From Candidatus Methanomethylicia archaeon (GTDB lineage Archaea; Thermoproteota; Methanomethylicia; CALHIW01): a stretch of 64,000 bases of DNA. The stretch lies in the NCBI GenBank assembly GCA_038845975.1, contig JAWBQF010000004.1, positions 64,001-128,000 of the forward strand, read 5' to 3'. Below the pieces are notes generated by a model, which was not told the origin of the DNA, ran no database searches, and saw nothing but the letters and a program-made list of their open reading frames with translations. Position numbers and translations under genes: made by a program. Of this stretch, positions 1-16,169 are shown piece by piece (the stretch's first letter is position 1; every line of letters begins with the position of its first letter).

Positions 1-540
1 TATGTAAATGCTGTTCTAGCTGGTGAACGAGACGGCATACCACCAAAGAGGTTTAATCTAGGTAACTCACCACATGAGTTTAAGCCAGAAGCTATTAATG
101 GTAGACTAGTGATTTTAACAACAACTAGTGGTACAAGAACAATAAAAAGTGCTAGTAGATTAGGCCCTACCCTCATAGGTGGAATTATCAATATAAAAGC
201 TGTTAGTGAAGCTGCATATAAGCTTGCAGTTGAAAGGGGGAGGGATATAGTTATAGTTATGGCTGGAAGAATAGGATTATTCTTCCTTGAGGATTTTATA
301 GGGGCTGGCTTAATAGCTAATGAGTTGGAGAAGTATAATGTTGTATTAGATGATGTAGCTACAGCATCTTTAAACCTAGTTAAGAATAGTGATTGGAGAA
401 GTTTAGCTGAAAAATCCGAGCATGCCAACTATCTTGCTAGTATAGGTTTCGGAAGAGATGTAGTATATGCTCTAACACCTAACATTTCAAGTACAGTACC
501 AATATTGATTAATAACATCATCACTAAGCTCGGAAAATAA
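1..540 (+). CDS. comB: 2-phosphosulfolactate phosphatase (ComB family), 5'-truncated by window edge
   Basis: Frame 1 is open from base 1: LAGERDG...FNLGNSP...LTTTSGT...LEDFIGAG, typical ComB motifs. Confidence 0.85.
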   Translation, partial: YVNAVLAGERDGIPPKRFNLGNSPHEFKPEAINGRLVILTTTSGTRTIKSASRLGPTLIGGIINIKAVSEAAYKLAVERGRDIVIVMAGRIGLFFLEDFIGAGLIANELEKYNVVLDDVATASLNLVKNSDWRSLAEKSEHANYLASIGFGRDVVYALTPNISSTVPILINNIITKLGK

Positions 541-621
541 CTGGAGCAGCTTAGATTAGTCTTATAAAGCTTCTGTGCAAAAATTTTTATACAACATTAC
601 TTTACATTAGGCGGTGTTTTA

Positions 622-1188
622 ATGTTTGAATTACGTCTCCATGGTAGAGGAGGACAAGGTATTGTTACTGCTGCTGAACTTCTTGTTAAGGCCGCATCTA
701 TAGAAGGAAAGTGGGGTCAAAGCATTCCTATGTTTGGAGCTGAACGTAGAGGAGCTCCTGTTATTGCCTATGCTAGAGTATCTAATAGACCTATTAGAAT
801 TCATAGTCAAATTTATGAGCCTGATGCTGTTGCCGTATTCGACTCTAGAATTATTGAAATTGTTAATGTTACAAGCGGATTGAAAAATGGTGGAGTTATA
901 ATTCTTAATACAAGTAGGGGGGTTGAGGGGCTGAAGCTAAATGGTTATAAAGTTGTTACTGTTGATGCTACCAGAATCGCTGTTAATCTTAAACTTGTTA
1001 CTGCTGGTTTCCCTATTGTTAATACAGCTATGATTGGAGCTATAGTTAAAGCTACAGGCTTAGTAAAGCTTGAATCAGTAATTACAGCTATTAGAAATAC
1101 GTGGAGTGGAGGTTTTGCTAATGGAAACATTAAGGCTGTAGAAAAAGCATATGAGGAGACCGTAGGGGTTGATTATGGAGACCCTTGA
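622..1188 (+). CDS. porG: 2-oxoacid:ferredoxin oxidoreductase gamma subunit (operon 1)
   Basis: RLHGRGGQG, FGAERRGAPV, VNTAMIGA motifs; 188 aa. Confidence 0.92.
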   Translation: MFELRLHGRGGQGIVTAAELLVKAASIEGKWGQSIPMFGAERRGAPVIAYARVSNRPIRIHSQIYEPDAVAVFDSRIIEIVNVTSGLKNGGVIILNTSRGVEGLKLNGYKVVTVDATRIAVNLKLVTAGFPIVNTAMIGAIVKATGLVKLESVITAIRNTWSGGFANGNIKAVEKAYEETVGVDYGDP

Positions 1189-1435
1189 AACACCATTATC
1201 AAAGCCTTCAGAAGGATCAGCTGGAATTACAGGCTACTGGAGAACATTCAAACCAGTAATTAATAAGTCTAAGTGTATAAAATGCTTACTATGCTGGATC
1301 TACTGTCCTGAGGGAACCATAATTAGAGTGGATGATGGTGTAGAGGTTAATTACATGTATTGTAAGGGATGTGGTATATGTGCAAATGAATGTCCAGCTA
1401 AAGCAATAGAGATGGTTTTAGAGGGAGAAATATGA
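1169..1435 (+). CDS. porD: 2-oxoacid:ferredoxin oxidoreductase delta subunit, 2x[4Fe-4S]
   Basis: TGYWRTFKPV, CIKCLLCWIYCP, YCKGCGICANECP. Confidence 0.92.
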   Translation: MIMETLETPLSKPSEGSAGITGYWRTFKPVINKSKCIKCLLCWIYCPEGTIIRVDDGVEVNYMYCKGCGICANECPAKAIEMVLEGEI

Positions 1436-2628
1436 GAGTTGTTTTAACAGGTAATCATGCTGCTGCTTACGCTGCATTACTATCAAGAGTTGAAGTTGTA
1501 GCGGCATATCCTATAACACCACAAACCCAAATTGTTGAGAAGCTAGCTGAGTTTATTGAGGGGGGAAGGCTTAAAGCTAAATATATAAGAGTTGAGTCTG
1601 AACATAGTGCGATGGCTGCCATAATTGGTGCTAGTGCTGCTGGTGCAAGAACTTTTACTGCTACAGCTTCACATGGACTTGTATATATGAATGAAATGGT
1701 TTTCTGGGCTGGAAATGCAAGACTACCTATAGTTATGGCTATAGTATGTAGAGCCTTAGCCCCGCCATGGAATATTTGGACTGAACATACAGATATACTT
1801 GCTCAAAGAGATACTGGATGGATTCAGTTTTTCTGTGAAGATAATCAGGAAGTTTTAGATACTGTTATTCAAGCCTTTAAAATAGCTGAAGATGATAGAG
1901 TTTTACTTCCAGTAATGGTTGGTCTTGATGCATTCATACTCTCACATACAGCTACTCCTGTAGATGTTCCAGAACAGGAGGATATTGATGGATTTCTACC
2001 TCCAAGAAAGCCTTTACCATTCATACTTGATGTTAATAATCCGTTAACCCATTCAAACATGGCATATCCTAATCAAACAATGGAGTTTAGATATAGACTT
2101 CAGAAAGCAATGGAGAGAGCTATGAGGGTTATAATGGAAGTAGATGAAGAATATGGAAGATTAACCGGTAGAAAATATGGTGGATTACTAGACTGTTATA
2201 GATGTGAAGATGCTGATTTAGGGGTTATAGTTATGGGATCTTCTGCAGGTGATGCTAAGGAGGCTATAGATAAACTACGTGATGAAGGATATAAGCCTGG
2301 AGTCATTAGGATTAGAGTTTTCAGACCATTTCCAAGGGAAGAACTTAGGGAAATATGTAGAAGATTTAAGGCTATAGCTGTTATTGATAGGGATCTATCC
2401 CCAGGTTTAGGTGGAATACTCTATACTGAAACACTTACAAGTCTATATGATTTAAAGAATAGACCAATAGTTCAAAACTATATAGCTGGATTAGGTGGAA
2501 GAGATATTAGTGTAAATGATTTTAAATTAATTGTTAGGGAATTATATAGAAATATTGAGGAGGGAGTTGAAATAACTCCTATAAGATGGATTGGAATAGA
2601 GGGAGTTAACTATGAGTTTAAAAATTAA
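1432..2628 (+). CDS. porA: 2-oxoacid:ferredoxin oxidoreductase alpha subunit
   Basis: AYPITPQT, VESEHSA, TATASHGL, GLGGRD motifs. Confidence 0.93.
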   Translation: MRVVLTGNHAAAYAALLSRVEVVAAYPITPQTQIVEKLAEFIEGGRLKAKYIRVESEHSAMAAIIGASAAGARTFTATASHGLVYMNEMVFWAGNARLPIVMAIVCRALAPPWNIWTEHTDILAQRDTGWIQFFCEDNQEVLDTVIQAFKIAEDDRVLLPVMVGLDAFILSHTATPVDVPEQEDIDGFLPPRKPLPFILDVNNPLTHSNMAYPNQTMEFRYRLQKAMERAMRVIMEVDEEYGRLTGRKYGGLLDCYRCEDADLGVIVMGSSAGDAKEAIDKLRDEGYKPGVIRIRVFRPFPREELREICRRFKAIAVIDRDLSPGLGGILYTETLTSLYDLKNRPIVQNYIAGLGGRDISVNDFKLIVRELYRNIEEGVEITPIRWIGIEGVNYEFKN

Positions 2629-3520
2629 AGATCTTCCTATTGAGGATTATTGGCTACCTGGCAACCCATCATGTCCCGGATGCCCAGCCTCACTTGGATT
2701 AAGATTACTTATGAAAGCCCTTGGACCTAAAACAATAACCATTATACCTGCATGCTGTTCAACAATAATTCAGGGAACATATCCTAAAACCTCAGCAAAC
2801 TTTCCAATACTTAACATAGCGTTTGCAGCTTCAGCAGCTGCTGCTTCAGGCATTGTTGAAGCATTAGAGCTTAAAGGTAAAAATAACGTTAATGTTGTTG
2901 TCTGGGCAGGTGATGGTGGAACTGTAGATATAGGACTGCAAGCGCTTAGTGGTGCTGCAGAGAGAAATGAAAATATTATTTACATATGTTATGATAATGA
3001 AGCGTATATGAATACGGGAATACAGCGTTCAGGCGCAACTCCCTACGGTGCATGGACAACAACAACCATTACAGGTAAAAAGGAACACAAGAAGAATTTA
3101 CCGCTAATAATGATTGCTCATGGAATACCATATGTAGCAACAGCATCAGTATCCTATCCTATAGACTTTATAACTAAATTGAGAAAGGCATCTAAAATTT
3201 ATGGAATGAAGTATATACACTTACATTCTCCATGTCCAACAGGGTGGAGGTTCCCATCAGACAAAACAATAGAAATCGGTAGATTAGCTGTTCTTACAGG
3301 TACATGGATATTATATGAAGTTGAAAATGGAACATTTAAACTAAATCCTCCAAGTAATATCTTAATAGATAAGAGTAAAAGAAAGCCGATAAGAAACTAC
3401 ATAAAGATTCAGGGAAGATTCTCTCATTTAAATGATGAGGATATAGATGAGCTGCAAAAATATGTAGATAGACAGTGGGAAACCTGCTTAAAGCTTCTAT
3501 CTATAGGTAAAGTCTATTAG
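2612..3520 (+). CDS. porB: 2-oxoacid:ferredoxin oxidoreductase beta subunit (TPP-binding)
   Basis: CPGCP, GDGG...DNEAYMNTGIQRS, SPCPTGW; substrate specificity cannot be read from sequence. Confidence 0.93.
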   Translation: MSLKIKDLPIEDYWLPGNPSCPGCPASLGLRLLMKALGPKTITIIPACCSTIIQGTYPKTSANFPILNIAFAASAAAASGIVEALELKGKNNVNVVVWAGDGGTVDIGLQALSGAAERNENIIYICYDNEAYMNTGIQRSGATPYGAWTTTTITGKKEHKKNLPLIMIAHGIPYVATASVSYPIDFITKLRKASKIYGMKYIHLHSPCPTGWRFPSDKTIEIGRLAVLTGTWILYEVENGTFKLNPPSNILIDKSKRKPIRNYIKIQGRFSHLNDEDIDELQKYVDRQWETCLKLLSIGKVY

Positions 3521-3714
3521 ACTATTGTAGAGCATCATGTAAAATATTGAATTTAAGCATGATATAGTTTAGAAGTTAGGAATCTAATGAAGAGAATACA
3601 ACATATTGGGTTAGAATTAAACTATTCGACAATTATATACCGTGCATGAAAGATAGGTGTGATAGTGAATGTGTATCCATGCTTATGGAGTCAGTAGTAT
3701 AGCCACCATTTAAT

Positions 3715-3771
3715 TCATAGAATATACAATACCAAAATAGAGGTGATAAAACATCTTAAGTTAACAAATCC
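3715..3771. repeat. Isolated end of the IS6-like element at 54655-55351
   Basis: catagaatatacaataccaaaatagaggtgataaaacatcttaagttaacaaatcc closely matches the reverse complement of 54655-54712. Confidence 0.75.
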
Positions 3772-3827
3772 CATAAAAATAACTTAATATTTAAATATTT
3801 TTATTCTATTTATTAAATGGTGCTTAT

Positions 3828-5528
3828 GTGACTTGGGAAAAACCTTGGTTTAAATTTTATCCTGTAGGTATTTCAAAAGAAGCTAAGATTCCTGAAGTAA
3901 GATTAGATGAGCTTTTAAAGAAAACCGCACAAGAGTTTCCTGGTAGAGTTTTTCTAAGATTTATGGGGGTTAAGTTTACATTTAGATATGTTGATGAGTT
4001 AGTAGATAGATTTACAACTGCTTTAGCTGATCTTGGTGTTAAAAAGGGAAGTGTTATTGCTATAATGCTTCCAAATTGTCCTCAGTTTGCTATAGCATAT
4101 TATGGAGCCTTAAGAGCCGGGGCAATAGTTACGACTTTAAACCCACTATATACTGCTAGAGAAGTAGAGTTTCAGCTGAATGATAGTGAATCAGAGATAC
4201 TTATAGTTTTAGATGTACTTTATACTAGCATCATTAGAGATATTAAAAATAAGACTTTCATTAAAAAGATAATCATTACAAATATTGCTGATTTCCTACC
4301 GCCATTAAAGAGGATGCTAGGCAAGTTTTTAAAGAAAATTCCTCAAGCTAAAGTTGAAGCAGCACCAGATATATATCTACTAATGAATTTAATTAAAAAA
4401 TATAGGCCAAATCCACCTAAAGTGGATATTAATGTAAAGGATGATGTTGCAGTACTCCTATATACAGGTGGAACAACAGGTACTCCAAAAGGAGCTATGC
4501 TAACACATTACAATATGGTTGCAAATGCTATACAATGTAATCTATGGTCTGGAACCAGAACCGGAGCAGAGGTTCTTATTGGCGTTCTTCCATGGTATCA
4601 TGTTTACGGTCAAACAGTAGTATTGAATAGTGCTGCAGCCATGGGTGGAACGGTAATAGTGTATCCAAGATTTGATGTTGAGGAGATAATGAGAGGTATA
4701 CAGGAAAATAAAGCTACATTATTTCCAGCTGTTGCAACAATATATAATGCTATTAATAATCATCCAAGCGTTAAGAAGTATAGTTTAAGTAGTTTAAGAG
4801 CAGGTATAAGTGGAGCAGGCCCGTTACCACTATCAATACAGGAAACATTTGAGAAGCTTACAGGAGCTTTAATATGTGAGGGATATGGATTAACAGAAGC
4901 AGCACCAGTAACTCATTGTAACCCTCTTAACCCAGAACTTAGAAAGGTGGGAAGTATAGGTATTCCACTACCAAGTACGGATGCTGGTATTATGCATATT
5001 GAGAAAAACGAATTTCTAAAACCTGGAGAAGAAGGGGAAATCGTGGTTTCAGGACCACAGGTTATGAAGGGATACTGGAGGAAACCTGAAGAAACTAGAA
5101 AGACATTAATTGTTATGAATGGGAAAATATGGCTACGTACAGGAGATATTGGGAAGATGGATGAAGATGGATTCTTCTACGTTATTGATCGGAAGAAGGA
5201 GTTAATAAAGTATAAGGGATGGTCTATATATCCGAGAGAAGTAGAGGAAGTACTGTTTAGTCACGAAGCTGTAAAAGATGCAGCAGTAGTAGGAATACCT
5301 GATCCTTCGGTTGGTGAGTGGATTAAAGCATATGTTGTATTAAAAGATGAGTATAAGGGAAAGGTAACAGTAAATGATTTAATAGAATGGTGTAAGAAAA
5401 ATCTTGCTCCATACAAGATACCTAAAGAAATAGAGTTTAGAGATCAATTACCAAGAACAATTGTAGGGAAGCTATTGAGAAGACTATTAAGAGATGAAGA
5501 AATAGCAAAACGTAGAACTACAACATAA
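3828..5528 (+). CDS. fadD: Long-chain-fatty-acid--CoA ligase (ANL superfamily)
   Basis: YTGGTTGTPKGA, EGYGLTE, RTGDIG, DRKKELIK, PRTIVGK motifs. Confidence 0.9.
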   Translation: MTWEKPWFKFYPVGISKEAKIPEVRLDELLKKTAQEFPGRVFLRFMGVKFTFRYVDELVDRFTTALADLGVKKGSVIAIMLPNCPQFAIAYYGALRAGAIVTTLNPLYTAREVEFQLNDSESEILIVLDVLYTSIIRDIKNKTFIKKIIITNIADFLPPLKRMLGKFLKKIPQAKVEAAPDIYLLMNLIKKYRPNPPKVDINVKDDVAVLLYTGGTTGTPKGAMLTHYNMVANAIQCNLWSGTRTGAEVLIGVLPWYHVYGQTVVLNSAAAMGGTVIVYPRFDVEEIMRGIQENKATLFPAVATIYNAINNHPSVKKYSLSSLRAGISGAGPLPLSIQETFEKLTGALICEGYGLTEAAPVTHCNPLNPELRKVGSIGIPLPSTDAGIMHIEKNEFLKPGEEGEIVVSGPQVMKGYWRKPEETRKTLIVMNGKIWLRTGDIGKMDEDGFFYVIDRKKELIKYKGWSIYPREVEEVLFSHEAVKDAAVVGIPDPSVGEWIKAYVVLKDEYKGKVTVNDLIEWCKKNLAPYKIPKEIEFRDQLPRTIVGKLLRRLLRDEEIAKRRTTT

Positions 5529-6132
5529 CCATTATAAAATATACTTAAATAATAAACCTTCTTTATGATAGAATCTCAAGACGCTTGACTACTTAGAGTA
5601 AATTAAAGAAGACGTTAAACCATATAATTCCACCTATTTAAAATCTAGTTAGAATTTAAGAAGTCAAAGTATCACATGCTATTTTATTGCATTCTTCCAT
5701 TCAATTTGCCCTATTATATAGGGTTGTTTACTGTATTGAGCTAAGAATACTTAGTTTTCTATTAAAGATAAATATACTGATTCTACTATGTTTCTCTTAC
5801 TAAAAGATGTTTCTGACATGGTTTAAATTTAGTACTTACATGCTACTCTATAATTGTCCTGCCAACCTAGATTTCATATTTATGTGCTGATAAGTAATGA
5901 ATGTAAAGTATGTAAGCTTAATAATATTTAAAGTAGATGTATACAGATAAGTCAAAATAATTTATTAGTTTTTAAAAGTATTGAGTAACATAATAAATGT
6001 ATAATTTAGATGCTGGAATTATAGGAATGTGTTAGAAAGATGAAAATAATAAAACTTCTAAAGATCACAAAGCCCTCTAGTTTTAACGATAGGCTTATAT
6101 ACTATTACTAAAAATACTTTTTGGTGTTCTAT

Positions 6133-6732
6133 ATGTCTTGGAATGAGGATTTTCCATCATGGTGGCGTAGAAGAAGAAAAAGCATACTTCCATCTTTTGA
6201 GGATATATTTGCAGAGTTTGATAGAATATTTGAGGAAATGTTACGTGGAATAGGTGAGGAAATTCCTAGAGGTTTAATTAGAGAAAGAAGACTTCCAGAT
6301 GGTAGGATAGTCCGTGAAACTGGACCAATAGTATGGGGATATTCAGTAACTATAGGCCCTGATGGAAAGCCACAAATAAGAGAATTCGGAAATGTTAAGC
6401 CTAGAATTAAGGAAACACCGTTCGGCGCTAAACCATCAGTAGAGGTTTTGGAAGAAAGAGAGCCGCTAGTTGATGTCATTGAGACAGAAGACCAAGTTAA
6501 GATTATAGCAGAGCTACCAGGTGTAGAGAAAGATGATATAAAGCTTAATGCAACAGAGAAAACACTTACAATATCTGTTGATACTGAGAGAAGAAGATAC
6601 TATAAGGAGCTTCAACTACCAGTAGAAGTTGATCCTGAAAGTGCTAAGGCATCATATAAAAATGGAGTATTAGAAGTGCAATTAGTAAAGAAAATTAAGA
6701 GTAAACCAGGAAAACATATTAAAATAGAGTAA
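6133..6732 (+). CDS. hsp20: Archaeal small heat-shock protein Hsp20
   Basis: GPIVWGYSVTIGPDGKP.IREFGN, EREPLVDV, AELPGV, ASYKNGVLEV; ATG at 6133 follows GGTG. Confidence 0.92.
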   Translation: MSWNEDFPSWWRRRRKSILPSFEDIFAEFDRIFEEMLRGIGEEIPRGLIRERRLPDGRIVRETGPIVWGYSVTIGPDGKPQIREFGNVKPRIKETPFGAKPSVEVLEEREPLVDVIETEDQVKIIAELPGVEKDDIKLNATEKTLTISVDTERRRYYKELQLPVEVDPESAKASYKNGVLEVQLVKKIKSKPGKHIKIE

Positions 6733-7105
6733 CATCTAAACTAATCTTAGTGACCATCTTTTTCATCCTAACTATTACTAGGATAGAGTCTATCTCGATA
6801 TTGTATTCATCAACTATACTTCCTAATCAATATGAATTACAGATGATAGCTCACAGAATCTATGAATCCTACATAGAGTTTCATAGCTTAATAGGTAAAA
6901 TCCTACTCATACATCTTAAGCTACATCCAAGAATAAGTTAATAAACTGTAATCAAATATAAATGATGTCCTCATCCCCTGAAGAAACTATAATTGCTAAC
7001 CATACTCAATATCAGAATGGGAATATACCCAAATAAAACTTCCAAAGTTGATGGGGCAATTATTTAAAATGGAAACATTTAAGTGTATGTAATAAATTAG
7101 GGCAT

Positions 7106-7112
7106 GGTGAGG
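7106..7112 (+). promoter_or_regulatory. Shine-Dalgarno-like GGTGAGG upstream of the true start of the interrupted gamma-subunit gene
   Basis: GGTGAGG directly before ATG 7115; AT-rich TTTAAG about 35 nt upstream. Confidence 0.55.
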
Positions 7113-7114
7113 CT

Positions 7115-7720
7115 ATGAAGTTTATTGAAATTAGATGGCATGGTAGAGGTGGTATGGGAATAGTTACTGTTGCAAGAATACTTGCAGAAGCAGCGCTTCT
7201 GGAGGGAAGATATTCACAGGCATTTCCTCATTTCGGCCCAGAATGTAGTATCTAGGCCTATAGGCCTAGATACTACCTGGAGCGTTCAGGAGCTCCTGTA
7301 GATGGATTTACTAGAATTGCAGATTTTCCTATTGAAATTCATAGTCAAATTTATAATCCTGATGTTGTTGTAGTAGTAGATCCAACATTGATTGGAGTTA
7401 TTGATGTTACACATGGACTTAAAAAGGATGGGAAATTAGTAATTAACTTTAGAGGGAAACCAATCGATATTAGGAATAAACTTAATATTGATAAAAGTAT
7501 AAAGGTTTTTGTTGTTGATGCTAAAAGAATAGCTTTAGATATTTTAGGTAGACCTATCTATAATACACCTATGCTTGGTGCTACTATTAAAGCTATTGAA
7601 GGACTTGTTTCATTAAAATCAGTAGTTGAAGCTACTATGAGTAGGTTTAAGGGAGAGTTAGGATTAAAAAACGTTGAAGCTATTAAAAGAGCTTATGAAG
7701 AGGTGATTTCCGATGAGTAA
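7115..7720 (+). CDS. porG: 2-oxoacid:ferredoxin oxidoreductase gamma subunit (operon 2), split gene join(7115..7243,7283..7720), 188 aa after splicing
   Basis: Exon 1 [18 protein letters not shown]...QAFPHFGPE; exon 2 [12 protein letters not shown]...IHSQIYNPD...IYNTPMLGA. The ORF track shows only the C-terminal part (7388-7720) because of the in-frame TAG at 7253. Confidence 0.9.
7244..7282 (+). other. Putative 39-nt bulge-helix-bulge (BHB) intron in a protein-coding gene
   Basis: Central helix CCAG(7238-41)/CUGG(7277-80); 3-nt bulges AAU(7242-44) and AGC(7281-83); inner stem from the perfect palindrome 7245-7276; outer pairing GGC/GUU. Removal restores FGPERSGAPV. Confidence 0.85.
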
Positions 7721-7991
7721 AACTGGATGGCGTAGCTTACCAGTTGCAGGTATTATTCCTAAAGCTGGCTCCAGTTTAGAATATAAGACAGGTACATGGA
7801 GAGCTTTTAAACCAGTAGTTGATGAGAGTAAATGTACGTTCTGCTTATTATGCTGGATCTATTGTCCTGATGGAGCTGTTAAACGTTTTGATAGTAATAG
7901 AAAGATTTCTATTGATTACGATTACTGTAAAGGATGTGGTATATGTGCTTCAGAATGCCCTGTTAAGGCTATAAGTATGGTGGAGGAGTGA
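7713..7991 (+). CDS. porD: 2-oxoacid:ferredoxin oxidoreductase delta subunit (operon 2)
   Basis: YKTGTWRAFKPV, CTFCLLCWIYCPD, YCKGCGICASECP. Confidence 0.92.
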   Translation: MSKTGWRSLPVAGIIPKAGSSLEYKTGTWRAFKPVVDESKCTFCLLCWIYCPDGAVKRFDSNRKISIDYDYCKGCGICASECPVKAISMVEE

Positions 7992-9169
7992 GTACTATGA
8001 GGATTATTGGTTTAACAGGTGATGAGGCTGTAGCTTATGCTGTTAAGCAGTGTGACGTTGATGTTATTGCTGCATATCCCATTACACCACAGACAATCAT
8101 TGTTGAGAGAATTAGTGATTTTGTTGCTAACGGTGAAATAGATGCTGAATATGTATGTGTTGAATCAGAACATTCAGCTCTCTCCGCATGTATTGGTGCA
8201 AGTGTAATGGGTGCTAGAGTATTTACTGCTACAGCTAGTCAGGGTCTAGCTTTAATGCATGAAATACTCTATATAGCTTCCTCTCTTAGGCTACCTATTG
8301 TTATGGCTGTTGTAAATAGAGCCTTATCTGCACCTATTAATATTCATGGAGACCATTCTGATATGATGGGGTCTAGAGATTGTGGATGGATTCAAATTTA
8401 TACTGAAAACGCTCAGGAAGCATATGACACTACAATTCAAGCATTTAAAATTGCTGAAGACCCCAATGCATCTCTACCTGTAACTGTTAATCTTGACGGT
8501 TTTATAATTTCACATTCAATGGAGAGAGTTGAAATCCTAAATGATGAAGATGTTAAAAGATTTCTCCCACCTAGAAAACCTTTATATAGACTTGATGTAG
8601 AAAACCCAATAACTATTGGGTCACTATGCTTTACCGATTACTACTTCGAGTTTAAAAGACAGCAAGCCGAAGCCATAGAGGAATCATACAAGACAATAAT
8701 GAGTGTTATGAATGAATATAGTAAAGCATCAGGTAGAAGCTATAAGTTTATAGATACATATGGTATTGAAGATGCTGAGGTACTGATTGTCTGCATGGGA
8801 AGTACATGTGGAACTGCTAGATTTACAGCTAAAAGACTAAGAGAAAGAGGAGAGAAAGTAGGAATTGTTAAGGTATCACTATATAGACCGTTTCCAAGTA
8901 AAGAAATAATTGAAGCTATCAAAAATGCTGAAGCCCTGGTTGTTATGGATAGAGCTGTAAGCTTTGGGGCTCCCTCAGGACCGCTATGCTCAGACATTAA
9001 AAATACACTATATGATGCTGGATTAAGAATAAAGATTTTAAATATAATCTATGGTCTTGGAGGAAGAGATGTCTCACAAAGTGATGTAGAGCAAGCGTTT
9101 AAGCTAGGCTTTAAATTAAAATCAGGAGATGTAAAAGATAAAGTCTTATGGCTAGGGGTGAGAGAATAA
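7988..9169 (+). CDS. porA: Pyruvate/2-oxoacid:ferredoxin oxidoreductase alpha subunit (operon 2)
   Basis: AYPITPQT, VESEHSA, TATASQGL, NRALSAPINIHGDH, YGLGGRD. Confidence 0.93.
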   Translation: MSTMRIIGLTGDEAVAYAVKQCDVDVIAAYPITPQTIIVERISDFVANGEIDAEYVCVESEHSALSACIGASVMGARVFTATASQGLALMHEILYIASSLRLPIVMAVVNRALSAPINIHGDHSDMMGSRDCGWIQIYTENAQEAYDTTIQAFKIAEDPNASLPVTVNLDGFIISHSMERVEILNDEDVKRFLPPRKPLYRLDVENPITIGSLCFTDYYFEFKRQQAEAIEESYKTIMSVMNEYSKASGRSYKFIDTYGIEDAEVLIVCMGSTCGTARFTAKRLRERGEKVGIVKVSLYRPFPSKEIIEAIKNAEALVVMDRAVSFGAPSGPLCSDIKNTLYDAGLRIKILNIIYGLGGRDVSQSDVEQAFKLGFKLKSGDVKDKVLWLGVRE

Positions 9170-10089
9170 TGGTTACCCTTAGGGAATTACCAATTGAGGA
9201 CTATATCGTATCTGGACATAGAATGTGTGCTGGATGCGGATCAGCTATTGCTGCAAGAATGGCTTTAAAAGCTGCAGGACCAAATACAATTGTTGTAAAT
9301 GCTACTGGATGCCTTGAAGTAGCAACAACAATTTATCCATATACTTCTTGGAGGATTCCATGGATACATGTAGCCTTTGAAAATGCAGCTGCTGTTGCAA
9401 GCGGTATTGAAGCAGCCATAAGAGTATTAACTAGGAAAAACTTGATGAAACAGAAGCCCAACATCATAGCTTTTGGAGGAGATGGAGGAACCTTTGATAT
9501 AGGAATTCAAGCATTATCTGGAGCATTAGAGAGAGGACATAGATTCCTATACATATGCTATGATAATGAAGCCTATATGAATACTGGAATACAACGTAGT
9601 GGAGCAACTCCACTTGGTGCTGCTACAACTACAAGTCCCTCAGGCAGAGTTATACCTGGTAAGAAAGAGTGGAAAAAGGACTTAATAGGTATCGCTGTTG
9701 CACATAATATTCCATATGCAGCTACAGCATGCATATCATATTGGAGTGACTATATTAATAAGGTTAAAAAGGCCTTAAGCTTTAATGGACCTACAGTTAT
9801 CCATGTTCTTTCACCATGCCAGCTTGGATGGCGTTTTGATCCTAGTGAAACAATAAAATTAGGTAGGTTAGCAGTACAAACCAGGATATTCCCAATATAT
9901 GAGGTTGAATATGGTAAATATAAATTAAATATTAATGTAACAAAGCCTTTACCAGTTATAGAGTATATAAGGATACAGGGTAGATTTAGGCATTTACTTG
10001 AACCACAAAACAGCCATATTATTGAAGACATACAGAAAAACATTAATTTACAGTGGAATCGTTTACTTAAACTTTGCAGTATAGAGTAA
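9169..10089 (+). CDS. porB: Pyruvate/2-oxoacid:ferredoxin oxidoreductase beta subunit (operon 2)
   Basis: GHRMCAGCG, ATGCLEV, FENAAAVASG, GDGG...DNEAYMNTGIQRS; ATG overlaps the porA stop (TAATG). Confidence 0.93.
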   Translation: MVTLRELPIEDYIVSGHRMCAGCGSAIAARMALKAAGPNTIVVNATGCLEVATTIYPYTSWRIPWIHVAFENAAAVASGIEAAIRVLTRKNLMKQKPNIIAFGGDGGTFDIGIQALSGALERGHRFLYICYDNEAYMNTGIQRSGATPLGAATTTSPSGRVIPGKKEWKKDLIGIAVAHNIPYAATACISYWSDYINKVKKALSFNGPTVIHVLSPCQLGWRFDPSETIKLGRLAVQTRIFPIYEVEYGKYKLNINVTKPLPVIEYIRIQGRFRHLLEPQNSHIIEDIQKNINLQWNRLLKLCSIE

Positions 10090-10300
10090 TCACATCTAAA
10101 TTCAATACCTATTTTAATATCTTCATTTATACAAATAACTTATAATTTTTACTTGAAGTTTTGTATGATAGACTGGTTTAGATACTACTTCTAATGTTAT
10201 TAGAAATTTAACCTTCAACTACTGTTAATATTATAGTAACATGGTTATCAAGCTTAATAATTAGCTAAAATTTAATATTTATATGTAGTTTAGTGATGTT

Positions 10301-10924
10301 ATGCTTGAAAGACTTTCATGCAGTATTTTAGCTGGTGGAGATTCAAGTAGATTTGGATCTTATAAGGCTTTAGCAATAATTAATAACAAGTTTTTAATAA
10401 CACATATTATAGCTAAGCTTATATCTCTAATACCAGACATAGTAATTACTGTAAGTAATGACAAACAGGAGAGAATGTTAAGAGATGCTATTAAAGAATT
10501 TAATGTTAGAATAGTTATTGATAAGCCTTTAGGAATTAAAGCTCCTATTGTTGGCTTCTATACAGGACTTATTGAATCAAGAAATGATTATGTTCTACAA
10601 GTTGCTTGCGATATGCCAAACATATCAATAAAATGTATTAAGTATATGTATGAGGAAGTAATAAATCATAAGTATGATGCAGCTATACCAAAATGGAATA
10701 ACCATATTGAGCCATTGCATGCTATATACAATAGAAAAAAAACTATTAAAGTAGTTGAAGAAGTATTGTATTTAGATAAAAGACTAGATTTTAGAGCAGT
10801 AATAGATAAAATTAGTAATAAAATATTCATTCCAATTGGTGGAAAATGTCCTGAAGAAACATTCTATAATATTAACTACAAATATGAATTACTAAAACTG
10901 AATCTTCACTGTGATGATTACTAA
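10301..10924 (+). CDS. mobA: Molybdenum cofactor guanylyltransferase
   Basis: ILAGGDSSRFG..KA, VACDMP, EPLHAIY, FYNIN. Confidence 0.88.
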   Translation: MLERLSCSILAGGDSSRFGSYKALAIINNKFLITHIIAKLISLIPDIVITVSNDKQERMLRDAIKEFNVRIVIDKPLGIKAPIVGFYTGLIESRNDYVLQVACDMPNISIKCIKYMYEEVINHKYDAAIPKWNNHIEPLHAIYNRKKTIKVVEEVLYLDKRLDFRAVIDKISNKIFIPIGGKCPEETFYNINYKYELLKLNLHCDDY

Positions 10925-11329
10925 TAGTAGGCTCTAGATTTCTTTAAACTTAAGCATTCTTAATTATTTCATCGTAGGAAAATTCACGAATCCATTATTT
11001 CTAGTCATTTTCATAGCATTAAACCATTAACTTAGAAGCATTGAATCACATAGATGAGACTATAGTAAAGTAAGATACTGCTATATTTTCTATTTTATGT
11101 TGAAGCAGTTCTTCAATAGAAGGCTCTTATTCATATCCAAAGTTCACTACTATCTTTAAGATAAATTCTCAATAGAACTATATTATGAAATAGAATAAAA
11201 AGATTATATTTGATTTAATGTTATTAACCTAAAGAAAGATTAAAGATAGAGAATGAAGAACATCTATAATTAAGTGAGAAATGAAATTATATACTTTTAC
11301 GTTCCTTAATAAGATTTTGTGGTTGCTAG

Positions 11330-11890
11330 TATGCAGATTATTTCTAGGATTTCCATTACTGCTTTTATTGAGTTTATGTTTCTTGATCTTCTACATGTTT
11401 TGAAGGCTGTTAAATATAGGCTTACATTATCCTTACATATTTCTCTATGTATTGTTAGCTATTGTCTTAGTATTGATGCCTTATTCTTATAATTATTTAC
11501 ATGGCATTTATCTTTAATCCATTCACCATCTGAATGGTCTACGTATTCATGAATATATCCTAGCTTGCTTAAGCCCATGTACAAGTTGAAGCTATCCATG
11601 TATATCGTTGAGCTCTTCTCAACCCGTCTACCTAAGATCTTAAGAGCTGCTTGGATTCAACATTGCTTAATGGAACATAATCCCCTGCTCCTACCAGCGA
11701 TTATGAATACGTTGGCTTATCGTAACTCCATAACCCACGTCTTCTCATACTCCAGTCTTGATGGTGTTTACTATTCTAGGTTTGGTCTTATAAGATATGC
11801 ACCATTAAACTCAATCTTACCAGTCCGTACTTTTAAAGAGAGAATTATAGTAAATATATGGTTCTATGGAATTGCTTGGAGTTTTGCTTA
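11330..11890 (-). pseudogene. IS1595-family (ISXO2-like DDE) transposase remnant; boundaries approximate
   Basis: Minus strand reads GKIEFNGAY...RRVEKSSTIYMDSFNLYMGLSKLGYIHEYVDHSDGEWIKDKCHVNN...HREICKDNVSLYL, with stops and frameshifts. Confidence 0.75.
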
Positions 11891-12369
11891 AACATGATTA
11901 AATCTACTAAGAGTAAGTAATGGATTCTTCTTTCTTAAGAAGTTTCTAGCTTCTACTCTATTAGGTTTTATCAGCTGTTTCCCAGTTGCCTTGAAGATAT
12001 ACTACATGTCATAAAGCTCCAACATTTACACATTTTAACTTCATTTGCTGGTTCAGATGTTACAGTTTCCCATTTTTAGGGCTTATTAATCTTGAAACGT
12101 GTTTGTCACACTGTTATTGGTATGTTTGTGTTGGTTTATATGGGGTTTCAATCCTTATAGTTTATGTGTAGAGTTACTTGTAGGGTTTGTTTAGGGTTGA
12201 ACCTCTTATTAATTCATGTTTAAGGGTTATTAAGCCCTTTACAGTTTAAGTTGAAGTTAGCTGGCGGCTTAATAGATTATTATCTTGACTTAATCTTTAG
12301 AGTTTCTTAACTGCTCATGGATTCACATAAAAGCCTATGGAGATATTGACATATGCTTTCAGAATTAGA

Positions 12370-12830
12370 ATAGATTTAAGGTTATAGCGTGGATGAGGAT
12401 GGAGCTTATGGGTAGTAGAGTATTCATGTTTTATAGTTGGTGTTGAACGTGAATTAATATTTGTAACAGTCTACGTAGTCGTACAGTCTTAGAAGTATTG
12501 ATGATTGTTGGAAAATTAGGTTTGATGTTAAATACGTAAATGATGAAGGGTCCTAGTATAGATGTTTGAATGGATTAAGCAAAATAACATGAAAACCTTA
12601 GAATATACTTGAACAAGTATTCAAATCATTAAACATAGAATTAAAAAATTCAATAATTTCAAAGGAAAATAACAAGAACAATAAGCTAGCTACATAGCTT
12701 CACATACATACACAACCTAACAACAAGCATAAAACAAGGAGTGATGATAGTGTGGCAAACATCTTGAAACTACCTTGTGAGCTCAAGCAATCAATTACAT
12801 GTACTTCTCACATCTAAAGTTCACAAAGCC
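12370..12830 (+). pseudogene. Heavily decayed IS6-family transposase remnant with a terminal repeat copy
   Basis: Fragments such as ..VDE.., NDEGS*YRCL and ILEQVFKSL/HRIKKFNN; TIR-like ctaaagttcacaaagcc at 12814-12830. Confidence 0.55.
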
Positions 12831-12990
12831 CTTAAGGCTATTTAATCTCAGATATTCATTCAACATTGTAAACATTGTCTAAATAACAATTTCAAAAATA
12901 TCTTATCCTTTCAATACTATTTAGACTTGTTCATTCATTTCATAACTAAAGTTAGGATTTCTAAGCAGAATTTTATAACGGCCACCATGA

Positions 12991-13908
12991 CTATTTAGTA
13001 GCACGACCACATCGAGTACAGAAAACAGAGCCTTCAGGTATTTCAGCTCCACAATAGCTACATTTTACATATTTTACTGATGGAAGTAATGTAAATCTCC
13101 TCTCTCTAATACCTTCATATTTCTTAGCTACTAGAACTGCTACTTCAAGCAGTATAATCATAGGTATGAATAGTGCTAAATCAGCTAATGGACCGCCATT
13201 AGGTGTTATAATCGCTGTAAGTATAAACAATACTGCATATATGTATCGTCTTCTTTTAGTTACAATGGTAGTATCTATAAAGCCAAGCTTTACAAGAATA
13301 ACAAAGATAACTGGTATCGTAAATGATAGTCCAGTCATTAAAACTGTAAAGAATATTACATTGTAGAAATCAATTACAGAAATGAATGCTTGAGCACCAA
13401 CTATATAATAGAATGGAAGCATAGCCCATATTAAGAATGGACATAAAATGAAAAAGCCGAAAAGCCCACCAACAATGAACAGTATTGTGAATGAGGTTAT
13501 GAATGGATATATCATTTTTCTTTCATGTGGATATAGAGCAGGATCTATAAACTTGTAAGCCTCATACGCTATAACAGGCATAGATACAATTACACCGAAT
13601 AATATTGATGTTAAAACATAAAGTTCAAGAGGAGCAGTAATCTCTACAGCTATAAGCTCTATTCGAGTTGAGTTTAAGGAATGGAATAGAAATGAGGATT
13701 CTAAAATATATGATCTAATATTTCTAAGAATTAAGCCTATTAAAGGCTCATAGAAGCCTAAAGGATCCTTTATAAAGTCGATGTTTGCCGGAAGAACCAT
13801 CATTGCAATGGATGACATTAATAAACAGTATACTACGACTTTTAATCTAGCCTTAAGTTCTTCAATATGCTCTGAGAAAGCCATTTCATTAGACAATATA
13901 GACCACAT
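12991..13908 (-). CDS. tatC: Twin-arginine translocase TatC with C-terminal zinc ribbon
   Basis: EHIEELKARL, FIDPALYPHE, AIITP, six hydrophobic segments; tail CSYCG...FCTRCG. Confidence 0.9.
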   Translation of the reverse strand: MWSILSNEMAFSEHIEELKARLKVVVYCLLMSSIAMMVLPANIDFIKDPLGFYEPLIGLILRNIRSYILESSFLFHSLNSTRIELIAVEITAPLELYVLTSILFGVIVSMPVIAYEAYKFIDPALYPHERKMIYPFITSFTILFIVGGLFGFFILCPFLIWAMLPFYYIVGAQAFISVIDFYNVIFFTVLMTGLSFTIPVIFVILVKLGFIDTTIVTKRRRYIYAVLFILTAIITPNGGPLADLALFIPMIILLEVAVLVAKKYEGIRERRFTLLPSVKYVKCSYCGAEIPEGSVFCTRCGRATK

Positions 13909-14033
13909 TAAATGCTATCTACACTAAGGTTTTAAACTTTTAGGCCTAGCTTAAACATGACTTATTTTCAATAATATTAATAAAGCTGTTTAAGCTAAGC
14001 TTAAGATTAGTTAAATTGCGGTAAACTACTAAA

Positions 14034-14318
14034 CTACCTAGCACGTGTCTTCTCAAGTATTTCTTGTACTATTTGTTCACGTGTTTTACCTTCAGTTTTT
14101 ATACCGAGATTTTTAGCAATTTCTATTATTCTTTCATCTGTTGTTGAAGATTTTTTAATTTCATCCTCAATACCTTTAGAAGCCTTTTCAAACTCCTTCT
14201 TCGCTAGTCCTATTGATCTAGCAAGCTCCGGAAGCTTCTGAGGACCCCATAGGAATATAACTACTATTAACACAATCACGATAATCCATTCCCAATTCAT
14301 TATCGCTAACGGTATCAC
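14034..14318 (-). CDS. tatA: Twin-arginine translocase TatA/E
   Basis: N-terminal TM followed by WGPQKLPELARSIGLAKKEF. Confidence 0.9.
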   Translation of the reverse strand: MIPLAIMNWEWIIVIVLIVVIFLWGPQKLPELARSIGLAKKEFEKASKGIEDEIKKSSTTDERIIEIAKNLGIKTEGKTREQIVQEILEKTRAR

Positions 14319-14442
14319 AATTCCACCTAAATATAACTTTAGAAAGATGAATTTAAACTTATCTATCTTAATAGTTAATTACTTATCATACTAGACTTAA
14401 ATTAGAAGTTGTAAAGCAAATTAAACTATTTAAACTTACATA

Positions 14443-14739
14443 TTGGGTGTTTTAAATTGTTTCATGCTAGATATGATTATTAGTGATATGATGTTACTGG
14501 ACTTATCAGATTTAATTAATAAAATTGATGAGTTCTTTAACGCTCTTGAACAGATAGCATCAGAATTTTTCACTCGTGCAAATCTACTTATCTTAGCAAT
14601 TGCAAGAATATCCTATATTACGTTAGCTACAGCCGGCTTTCTATTGTACTTTTCAGGTATTGATAGGTATAGAGGGAAAAATCTGATGATAGGTGGACTA
14701 ATCTTAGCATTAATAACAGAGTTTATGGGGGCAGCATAA
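14443..14739 (+). CDS. Small two-TM membrane protein, weakly VirB2/TrbC pilin-like; true start probably downstream
   Basis: Two hydrophobic segments separated by SGIDRYRGKNL. Confidence 0.5.
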   Translation: MGVLNCFMLDMIISDMMLLDLSDLINKIDEFFNALEQIASEFFTRANLLILAIARISYITLATAGFLLYFSGIDRYRGKNLMIGGLILALITEFMGAA

Positions 14740-15338
14740 TTATACATCTAAAGTCACTATGGTGTTACATCTAACCTATATCTTATCCTTAAAAGCTAAC
14801 CATTTTTAGCTTATTGGAAATATTCTTGTACTCTTAACTTTAGCCTTCTCCTCATAGCTTAGATTCCTGCACTTCTAAGGTCTTCTACAAATTATTCCAG
14901 TATCTTTAAGTATATTTCATACATGACCCTTATCTCTTAAAGTCTTTTACTAAGTGCTATAATGGAATCCTAACATCTCGGTTATTTCTAGGTATAAGAC
15001 TGAATCTTTAGAATTAACCATACTCTTTCTACTCTACTTGCTTATCTTTACTTTCATCTTAATTTTAAACTTATTCTTGGGAAATTATACACTTTATAAT
15101 GCTCATCCTATTTGTATATGCCTTCTAAATATAAGCTTTGATAAGATTCCTGTATGAGAATCCCATCAGATCTCACTATATGTCCCTTCTATACTCATGA
15201 AATCTTGGTTTTACTTAGAAAGTCTTTTAACACTACTTTACTAATCTCAGAAAACATAAGCCTCTAGATCCCTAAAATATAGTATTCTAGCAAATATGTA
15301 AGCATCATATTAAAATGGACTTAACTGATTACACTAAT

Positions 15339-15791
15339 TTAAATGCTAGAGTGATTAAGCTGCATTAATGTCTCTACTCTACTTACTACTCTATACATAT
15401 TCCAGTATACAGTTTTAGTTAGTTTAACAATTGCTGATGCCAATAATTCAGCTGTAGTTCTATCAAGGATTTCACTCACGCTTAAACCATTAATTTTACA
15501 GATAGATAGTAATTCCTCACATACTCTAAATATTAACCAAGACCTTAATAGTATAACTTTAACATACTTTCCCTCATACTCTTTAAATAACCTAACAGTA
15601 CTAGCCAGTAATTTTCTAAAAATTTCTTCATTTATATGATTACCATCTATGTTTAGGAGGTGTTGAAGATGTTGAAAACATAGCTTAATACATTCATTAG
15701 AGTTTATAACAGCATCTACAAATTGTAGCTTATTTAATTTTCTCTCAGCAATGATTAATACTTCATAAGCTTGGTCAAAAGCAGCAGTCAT
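15339..15791 (-). CDS. Hypothetical helical protein, possibly a degenerate HEPN domain
   Basis: N-terminus QAYEVLIIAE...FVDAV...ECIKLC resembles HEPN helices; no RxxxxH motif. Confidence 0.45.
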   Translation of the reverse strand: MTAAFDQAYEVLIIAERKLNKLQFVDAVINSNECIKLCFQHLQHLLNIDGNHINEEIFRKLLASTVRLFKEYEGKYVKVILLRSWLIFRVCEELLSICKINGLSVSEILDRTTAELLASAIVKLTKTVYWNMYRVVSRVETLMQLNHSSI

Positions 15792-16169
15792 CTTAACTCT
15801 ACTGAAGTTCTCATTAGAGTTTATATAATTACATCAAACTAAGCATAATTATAAGTTAACATATTATCACGCATGAAAGTTACTATCATACCATAATGTA
15901 ATTATATTAACTTTACTTGGAGATGCTTCTTCATTCTTAGAGAGGATGTTTATGATTATCCAAGTTCTGAATGTTTACCTCATATAATAGGAAATTCTAG
16001 TAATTGCTTATATACAATATAGCTAGATAAGATTATCCGGTAAAAAGCATTGTAAATTAAATAAATGGTCTTGTAAATAGTTAGTAAGCTTTTTAATCAT
16101 TAAAGAATATTATAGTAGAATTATAGATACATAGTGATAATTATATAGTATAAGTTAAGTATACTGATT

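Follow-up and report, generated by a model that had tools for sequence, protein, structure and literature searches.

The pre-mRNA of cbf5 in Crenarchaeota reportedly carries an intron, said to have been described by Watanabe in 2002 and by Yoshinari in 2006. The hosts of this intron are given, in a passage of Yokobori 2009 (PMC2738675), as Crenarchaeota of the Desulfurococcales and Sulfolobales, and another passage of the same source places BHB cleavage between residues 2 and 3 of the bulge. The BHB motif consists of two 3-nt bulges on opposite strands with a 4-bp helix between them, and the EndA types reported to cut relaxed forms of the motif are (alpha-beta)2 and epsilon2 (passages of PMC5829648).

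A BHB intron was also described in the mRNA 5' UTR of HVO_1309 of Haloferax volcanii (passages of Schwarz 2020, PMC7714728, and of PMC10485636). The former source treats cbf5 as the only additional BHB-intron case besides the HVO_1309 leader; the latter, a 2023 review, counts in one passage two or more genes of archaea and expects more. A 2025 paper (PMC12397907) cites the cbf5 work alone in its passage on pre-mRNA splicing, and the relevant part of Danan 2012 (PMC3326292) describes circles in ORFs and no new spliced mRNA. In the main texts of the literature searched, no published porG intron and no further coding-sequence BHB intron besides that of cbf5 was found. The locus described here makes porG very probably a new host gene for this known kind of intron, present in two clades.

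The interrupted porG gene and its insert

The window (the whole 64,000-nt stretch of DNA that was analysed) belongs to a genome (G000) of the class Methanomethylicia, phylum Thermoproteota, with a size of 2.77 Mb in 76 contigs and 33.7% G+C. Positions 7115-10089 hold a four-gene 2-oxoacid:ferredoxin oxidoreductase operon in the order gamma, delta, alpha, beta, in which porG (gamma) comes first; the genes and features of both operons given below lie on the plus strand. The genes porD (7713-7991; Pfam Fer4), porA (7988-9169; POR_N and PFOR_II) and porB (9148-10089; TPP_enzyme_C) are intact. porG is divided into exon 1 (7115..7243; 43 codons, ending in FGPE), which matches positions 1-32 of Pfam PF01558 (POR), and exon 2 (7283..7720; 145 codons plus stop, beginning with RSGAPV), which matches positions 34-173 of the same family.

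The 39 nt that separate the exons (7244..7282, plus strand) interrupt the conserved motif FGPE/RSGAP exactly where its E codon meets its R codon. They contain an in-frame TAG at 7253-7255 and no ORF; when the insert is retained, translation stops at this TAG and a 46-aa ORF results. An intronless paralogous oxidoreductase operon at 622..3520 (plus strand; gamma 622-1188, alpha 1432-2628, beta 2612-3520) served as internal reference for the uninterrupted gamma junction. Two intronless gamma paralogues occur in the genome, one at 622-1188 of the window and one on contig C16, and in both the stretches that tblastn aligns with the two exons adjoin directly, with no base between them. Together with the split of the Pfam match, this means that excision of exactly 7244-7282 joins GAA to CGT and restores FGPE-RSGAPV.

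The two paralogous operons (622-3520 and 7115-10089) lie 6 kb apart and the intron is found in the second alone. Between them are an Hsp20 gene and an ORF at 3828-5528, which to judge by its sequence is probably AMP-forming acyl-CoA synthetase-like.

Positions 7245-7276 of the insert read GTAGTATCTAGGCCTATAGGCCTAGATACTAC, a perfect spacer-less palindrome of 32 nt that fills 32 of the 39 nt, as the preliminary description had stated; the CTGG that follows (7277-7280) is complementary to CCAG at the end of exon 1 (7238-7241), which had likewise been read correctly. As RNA, the insert is made up of U, the 32-nt hairpin, CUGG and AG. With up to 3 mismatches allowed, the palindrome has a single copy in the window and none in 100 dinucleotide shuffles; for its 20-nt core, the 2.77-Mb genome likewise contains one site when up to 2 mismatches are tolerated.

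The genome holds four further perfect palindromes whose arms reach 15 nt or more, against about 0.01 expected by our own estimate. They are spacer-less, 30-34 nt long (G000:C23:9401-9434, C45:5710-5743, C2:14115-14144 and C34:4015-4044), and BHB flanks were found at none of the four. Two of them sit within long open frames, which they leave unbroken.

Contigs from metatranscriptome libraries (X1, X2) matched parts of porD, porA and porB, a few of them as near-identical pieces; these matches do not amount to proof that the operon is transcribed. In four RNA runs depth was zero across 7114-7648, leaving the intron site uncovered, and the raw reads of X3 and X4 gave 0 reads.

RNA fold, conservation and processing enzymes

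The RNA from 7215 to 7310 folds with an MFE of -42.2 kcal/mol (z = -5.56), and 0 of 200 shuffles were as stable. The MFE structure is composed of the exon-exon helices ACAGG-CCUGU and UUCCU-AGGAG, a small loop, the helix CCAG-CUGG, the bulge AAU and a 14-bp hairpin; the RNAalifold consensus of the window clade has an architecture matching this fold. The outer-helix strands of exon 1, ACAGG and UUCCU (7216..7228, plus strand), pair with 7288-7299, and 96% of the cells are paired. Helix H is formed by the exonic strand CCAG (7238..7241, plus strand) and the intronic strand CUGG (7277..7280, plus strand), and the exonic strand is invariant in 5/5 variants. The palindrome (7245..7276, plus strand) is, on the modelled fold, very probably the h' hairpin stem of the intron, with 14 bp and a UAUA loop as RNA; four of its pairs covary.

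At the 5' site the 3-nt bulge AA/U (7242..7244, plus strand; the slash marks the cut) is seen in the MFE and consensus folds, with the cut predicted after 7243. At the 3' site the bulge or loop AG/C (7281..7283, plus strand) has its predicted cut after 7282. In the window clade the folds give a 2x2 internal loop at this 3' site; a strict 3-nt bulge is possible there if 7235-7237 pair with 7284-7286 (C-G, G-U, G-U). Since the 3' site folds as an internal loop and the strict bulge needs two G-U pairs, the predicted motif fits the relaxed HBh' class and not the strict hBHBh' class.

The insert is present at the identical site in the window, in G001, a separate species-level genome of the same genus, and in the metagenome contigs L043-L046. 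Exon 2 of G001 has 92% protein identity to the window, and L044, L045 and L046 are 84-86% identical to it; L043 is identical to the window, possibly from the same sample, and was left out of the 5 distinct variants. When the introns of these 5 variants were aligned, 30 of the 39 columns were invariant, including all bases of the BHB core, and the 9 variable columns corresponded to stem pairs 8, 12, 13 and 14 and to the loop. On the proposed structure 98.1% of the cells were paired, compared with 28-50% when the partner was slid.

Four hairpin pairs were altered on both sides (C-G to U-A, G-C to U-A or A-U). In G001 two C-G pairs had become U-G, and one other variant had one G-A mismatch. Palindromy was imperfect across the variants: it was perfect in 3/5, one variant retains its pairing by virtue of G-U pairs and one carries the G-A mismatch. 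These G-U changes and imperfect palindromes indicate that selection acts on the RNA stem; as judged from the alignment, the conserved feature is RNA pairing and not DNA palindromy.

Exon 1 and exon 2 are open in 5/5 variants, and for the spliced frame of these variants pairwise dN/dS was 0.06-0.22, with dS up to 0.57. When protein databases were searched with the 46-aa exon-1 ORF, the matches were confined to one cluster of 4 contigs at 87% identity. Given purifying selection on a gene with a stop-bearing insert, porG would be a functional gene whose insert must be removed after transcription, as RNA.

Two EndA paralogues are encoded in the genome. One, of 183 aa, matches the crenarchaeal EndA chains 3P1Z_B/3AJV_B (E = 5e-51) and the other, of 180 aa, is divergent. 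The preliminary description had raised the EndA subunit type: two separate EndA genes of about 180 aa each would fit the (alpha-beta)2 type. One RtcB gene is present, and the cbf5 homologue of this genome is an uninterrupted 330-aa frame. ARAGORN predicted only 26 tRNA genes; it placed introns in 15, many of these introns at non-canonical positions. Its odd predictions include a tRNA-SeC and a 179-nt intron in a tRNA-Ile. The tRNA set is probably under-detected, probably as a result of introns.

In the mechanism that we propose, the exonic CCAG of the por transcript would pair with the intronic CUGG to give the 4-bp central helix; the 14-bp hairpin would stack on one side of it and the exon-exon helices would close the other side. 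AA/U and AG/C would then be displayed as cleavage sites, 2 nt past each helix end. EndA, built from two paralogous subunits, would cut both sites, and RtcB would ligate GAA to CGU, giving ...FGPE-RSGAPV... and a functional gamma subunit. The 39-nt intron would be released, possibly in circular form, and the circular junction ...CTGGAG/TGTAGT... put forward earlier is consistent with the splice sites predicted here.

It is thus highly likely that the 39 nt at 7244-7282 are an archaeal BHB intron in the porG pre-mRNA, for which we infer cleavage, ligation and circularisation. The reading is based on the anatomy of the insert, the exact junction, covariation, purifying selection and the presence of the enzymes. 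The BHB-intron anatomy matched to its host site, first proposed from the letters of this DNA, agrees with both the fold and the junction derived from homology. Under coupled transcription and translation, unspliced porG mRNA would yield the 46-aa peptide, which would count against splicing.

Inserts in a second clade and alternative readings

A sample of 301 genomes of the phylum led to G312, whose porG carries a 22-nt insert at the same E/R boundary (L082:435-456). A search of its class covered 120 genomes, of which 42 had a match at E up to 1e-35, and the junctions of these were read. Other inserts were found at the same boundary in G333 (24 nt), G331 (23 nt) and G334 (20 nt), located just upstream of the exon-2 match (L085-L087). 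This second clade comprises four genomes of another class of Thermoproteota, and 3/4 of its insert lengths are not multiples of 3. Open-frame length was an unreliable flag for an insert: G331 shows 188 aa yet carries one.

The insert of G312 folds (z = -4.12) into an exon-exon helix, a 3x3 loop, CCCG-CGGG, the bulge AGA and a 6-bp hairpin. The consensus fold of the clade is the same, with a 3x3 loop at the 3' site, a hairpin of 5-6 bp with the sequence CGCC(C/U)...(A/G)GGCG and one covarying pair; the bulge is AGA, or AAA in G333. Cuts are predicted at AG/A or AA/A on the 5' side and at AU/A, AG/A or AA/A on the 3' side. In both clades, then, the MFE fold and the consensus fold alike contain the 4-bp helix and the 3-nt bulge of the 5' site, and the two sets of introns have a common architecture and no shared sequence.

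The helices of the two clades, CCCG-CGGG and CCAG-CUGG, differ by a compensatory change: base 3 of the Pro codon is C in one and A in the other, and the intron base is G or U, respectively. This change and the covariation described above were observed in a small sample (5 + 4 sequences). Cutting between bulge nucleotides 2 and 3 reproduces the homology-derived junction in 9/9 distinct insert-bearing sequences, with insert lengths of 39, 24, 23, 22 and 20 nt.

The same protein would be obtained by programmed translational bypassing, a hop of the T4 gene 60 type from GAA (7241-7243) to GAG (7280-7282). Such bypasses have matched take-off and landing codons and a stop directly after take-off. The take-off GAA and the landing GAG are both Glu codons in 5/5 window-clade variants, and the gap holds a stable hairpin and an in-frame stop. 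However, the stop is the 4th codon after take-off and not adjacent to it, and the second-clade inserts end in GAU, GAG, GAU and GAA, 2/4 of which are not Glu codons. Bypassing would also leave the invariant CCAG-CUGG helix and its compensatory counterpart CCCG-CGGG without a role, and translational bypassing is not known from archaea. It is a highly improbable explanation.

That porG is a pseudogene, disrupted when a palindrome inserted (as the footprint of a transposon, as a MITE-like element or by replication slippage) while its paralogues suffice, would agree with the in-frame TAG and with the two intact paralogous gamma genes of the genome. Against this, the insert is kept at the same site in 5 diverged variants whose exons are open (dN/dS 0.06-0.22 at dS up to 0.57, as given above), substitutions within the insert keep the pairing, the other genes of the operon are intact and the element is single-copy. 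These observations make decay of the gene an extremely poor candidate.

The insert could in principle be translated as 13 codons, with TAG decoded (e.g. as pyrrolysine), to give a 13-residue loop in PorG: 39 is a multiple of 3, TAG is the sole stop and the genome has an MtmB-family methyltransferase gene. The variation has the pattern of an RNA stem, however, with codon positions 1 and 2 changing in palindromically coupled pairs (A/V/F/I; P/T/S). The loop would lie within the most conserved motif of the family, and the second-clade inserts of 20, 22 and 23 nt are unreadable in frame. Read-through is hardly conceivable on these grounds.

At the locus L064 (G000:C2:32478-33466, minus strand) an MtmB-family methyltransferase frame comes after a gene with a B12-binding domain. 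The frame is open for 454 codons without an in-frame stop, which suggests that it is not the pyrrolysine-type mtmB.

Amplification of metagenomic DNA can produce perfect palindromes artificially, but a chimera from library preparation or assembly has a next to negligible probability here, being refuted by independent assemblies that carry the insert with substitutions (G001 and three further metagenome contigs of 39-264 kb, L043 not counted).

Distribution, origin and relation to described introns

The junction was read in 42 + 60 genomes with one homologue per genome. Among these 102 Thermoproteota genomes other than G000, and among the matches listed, the insert was found in 5 and was absent from 97; 138 further matches lay outside this set. 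It was also present at 4 of 13 metagenome loci and at 0 of 10 bacterial loci. The junctions of intronless homologues gave no signal of a pre-existing fold (60 sequences, mean z -0.03).

A tree was built from 67 exon-2 proteins (144 columns). Each intron clade is monophyletic (100/99) and the window clade groups with the intronless G233 (94/87). The backbone is without resolution, and no sister relationship between the intron clades appears when the tree is left unconstrained; forcing the nine intron-bearing genes together cost 14.2 lnL units and was not rejected (AU p = 0.112).

An Hsp20 gene (6121-6732) lies upstream of porG in the window. Of the 10 intron-bearing loci searched, 8 have Hsp20 adjoining porG, including L003 (G001) and L043, a count in which L043 is the window's own copy and the window itself was not part of the search. 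L045 bears the intron and has no adjoining Hsp20. Most intron-bearing loci of both clades have Hsp20 directly upstream, the neighbourhood being noted at L003, L043, L044, L046 and L084-L090. Hsp20 is likewise the neighbour of porG at 3 second-class loci that lack the intron and at 0 of 26 other Methanomethylicia loci, and its orientation differs between the two clades. This neighbourhood hints that the por loci of the two clades could be related, and Hsp20 may be the marker of a shared or transferred locus.

A positional family exists in the sense that different BHB inserts occupy the same porG codon boundary in two clades. It is possible, though on balance doubtful, that the FGPE/R boundary was invaded more than once or that the intron moved between distant lineages with the Hsp20-por locus; the alternative is plain vertical descent with losses. 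Repeated invasion or transfer, if true, would point to a site-directed route by which BHB mini-introns without ORF are inserted into mRNA-coding DNA, for example one in which EndA/RtcB reverse-splice the intron into a BHB-like fold and the product is then reverse-transcribed and recombined.

The preliminary description had suggested that the insert may belong to a group of tiny hairpin introns that spread. In a search of 62 genomes of the class, each hairpin arm had one site in G000, one in G001 and no other, and the hairpin pattern had no match in viral contigs, so that this suggestion was not borne out. The porG insert had no match in phage records and no Rfam family at E up to 1, and comparison of the 39-mer with the rest of the genome gave no similar sequence. 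A MITE-like repeated palindromic element was rejected, there being one copy in G000.

Descent from a homing-endonuclease intron, also suggested earlier, found no support: no homing-endonuclease Pfam family was detected in window positions 1-16000, where ORFs of 90 aa or more were scanned, nor beside the copies of 7 relatives, where the search took 29 hand-picked frames out of 61 that stay open for 70 codons or more. A mobile intron with a homing endonuclease was discarded, since the 39 nt have no ORF, no endonuclease family was detected in the frames just named and the hairpin is single-copy in the 62 genomes.

The genome was scanned with a BHB descriptor (4-bp helix, 3-nt bulge, h' of at least 5 bp with at most 1 G-U, intron of 20-200 nt), which gave 46,339 seeds. 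An ORF-merging filter left 618 candidates compared with 620-661 in 8 controls with shifted splice sites; there was no enrichment, because the filter mostly takes ordinary neighbouring genes. Of the 294 candidates whose intron was no longer than 120 nt, porG ranked first in structure. A paralogue test of all 618 candidates returned porG and two false positives, which are adjacent ABC-transporter genes and not split genes. A Pfam test of 22 junctions flanked to left and right by 100 or more open codons, one near-duplicate row excluded, gave 0 split genes, and none of 211 hairpin-type candidates had BHB flanks.

The expectation that other broken genes of this genome would be spliced too was not met by this partial scan, which is blind to short exons, weaker stems and genes without paralogues: porG was the one interrupted coding sequence obtained. 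At L074 (G000:C40:4074-5103) adjacent frames gave weak matches, below curated cut-offs, to DUF6046 and to a baseplate hub (Phage_GPD); the region may be tail-like or proviral.

Gene callers split or discard genes of this kind, in the present case into a 46-aa ORF and a truncated ORF, and metabolic reconstructions for such uncultured archaea would for that reason score this pyruvate/2-oxoacid oxidoreductase as broken. If porG is spliced, the cell would need its tRNA-splicing machinery to make this enzyme. The occurrence of different introns at one site in two clades also offers a small and tractable case for the gain and loss of enzyme-spliced introns in protein genes.

Like the HVO_1309 leader, the porG transcript would be an mRNA on which the tRNA-splicing endonuclease acts, in addition to tRNA and rRNA. 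In HVO_1309 the intron lies in an untranslated leader and the enzyme is of the alpha2 type, whereas the porG insert interrupts the reading frame, so that splicing would be obligatory for the protein. The non-canonical tRNA introns of Thermoproteota (HBh'/hBH; a passage of PMC5829648) have 3-nt bulges, a 4-bp helix and presumed enzymes like those predicted for porG, and differ in that the host RNA of porG is an mRNA.

One of the closest resemblances in kind is to the cbf5 intron. Both are short, without ORF and inside protein-coding sequence; both have, by prediction in the case of porG, a relaxed ("unconventional") BHB at their borders with the cut between bulge nucleotides 2 and 3; and both combine a variable interior with conserved borders and a patchy, lineage-specific distribution. 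Hosts of the cbf5 intron have a hetero-oligomeric EndA, to which the two EndA paralogues found here would correspond, the type being judged from the genes. Splicing has been shown experimentally for cbf5, whereas for porG it is predicted.

Unlike cbf5, which encodes an RNA-modification enzyme, porG encodes an enzyme of central metabolism; its hosts belong to one Methanomethylicia genus and to another class of Thermoproteota, and in the window clade its interior is a long, almost loop-less hairpin. The predicted intron in porG would hence add a central-metabolism gene, in Thermoproteota including Methanomethylicia, to the hosts of BHB introns.
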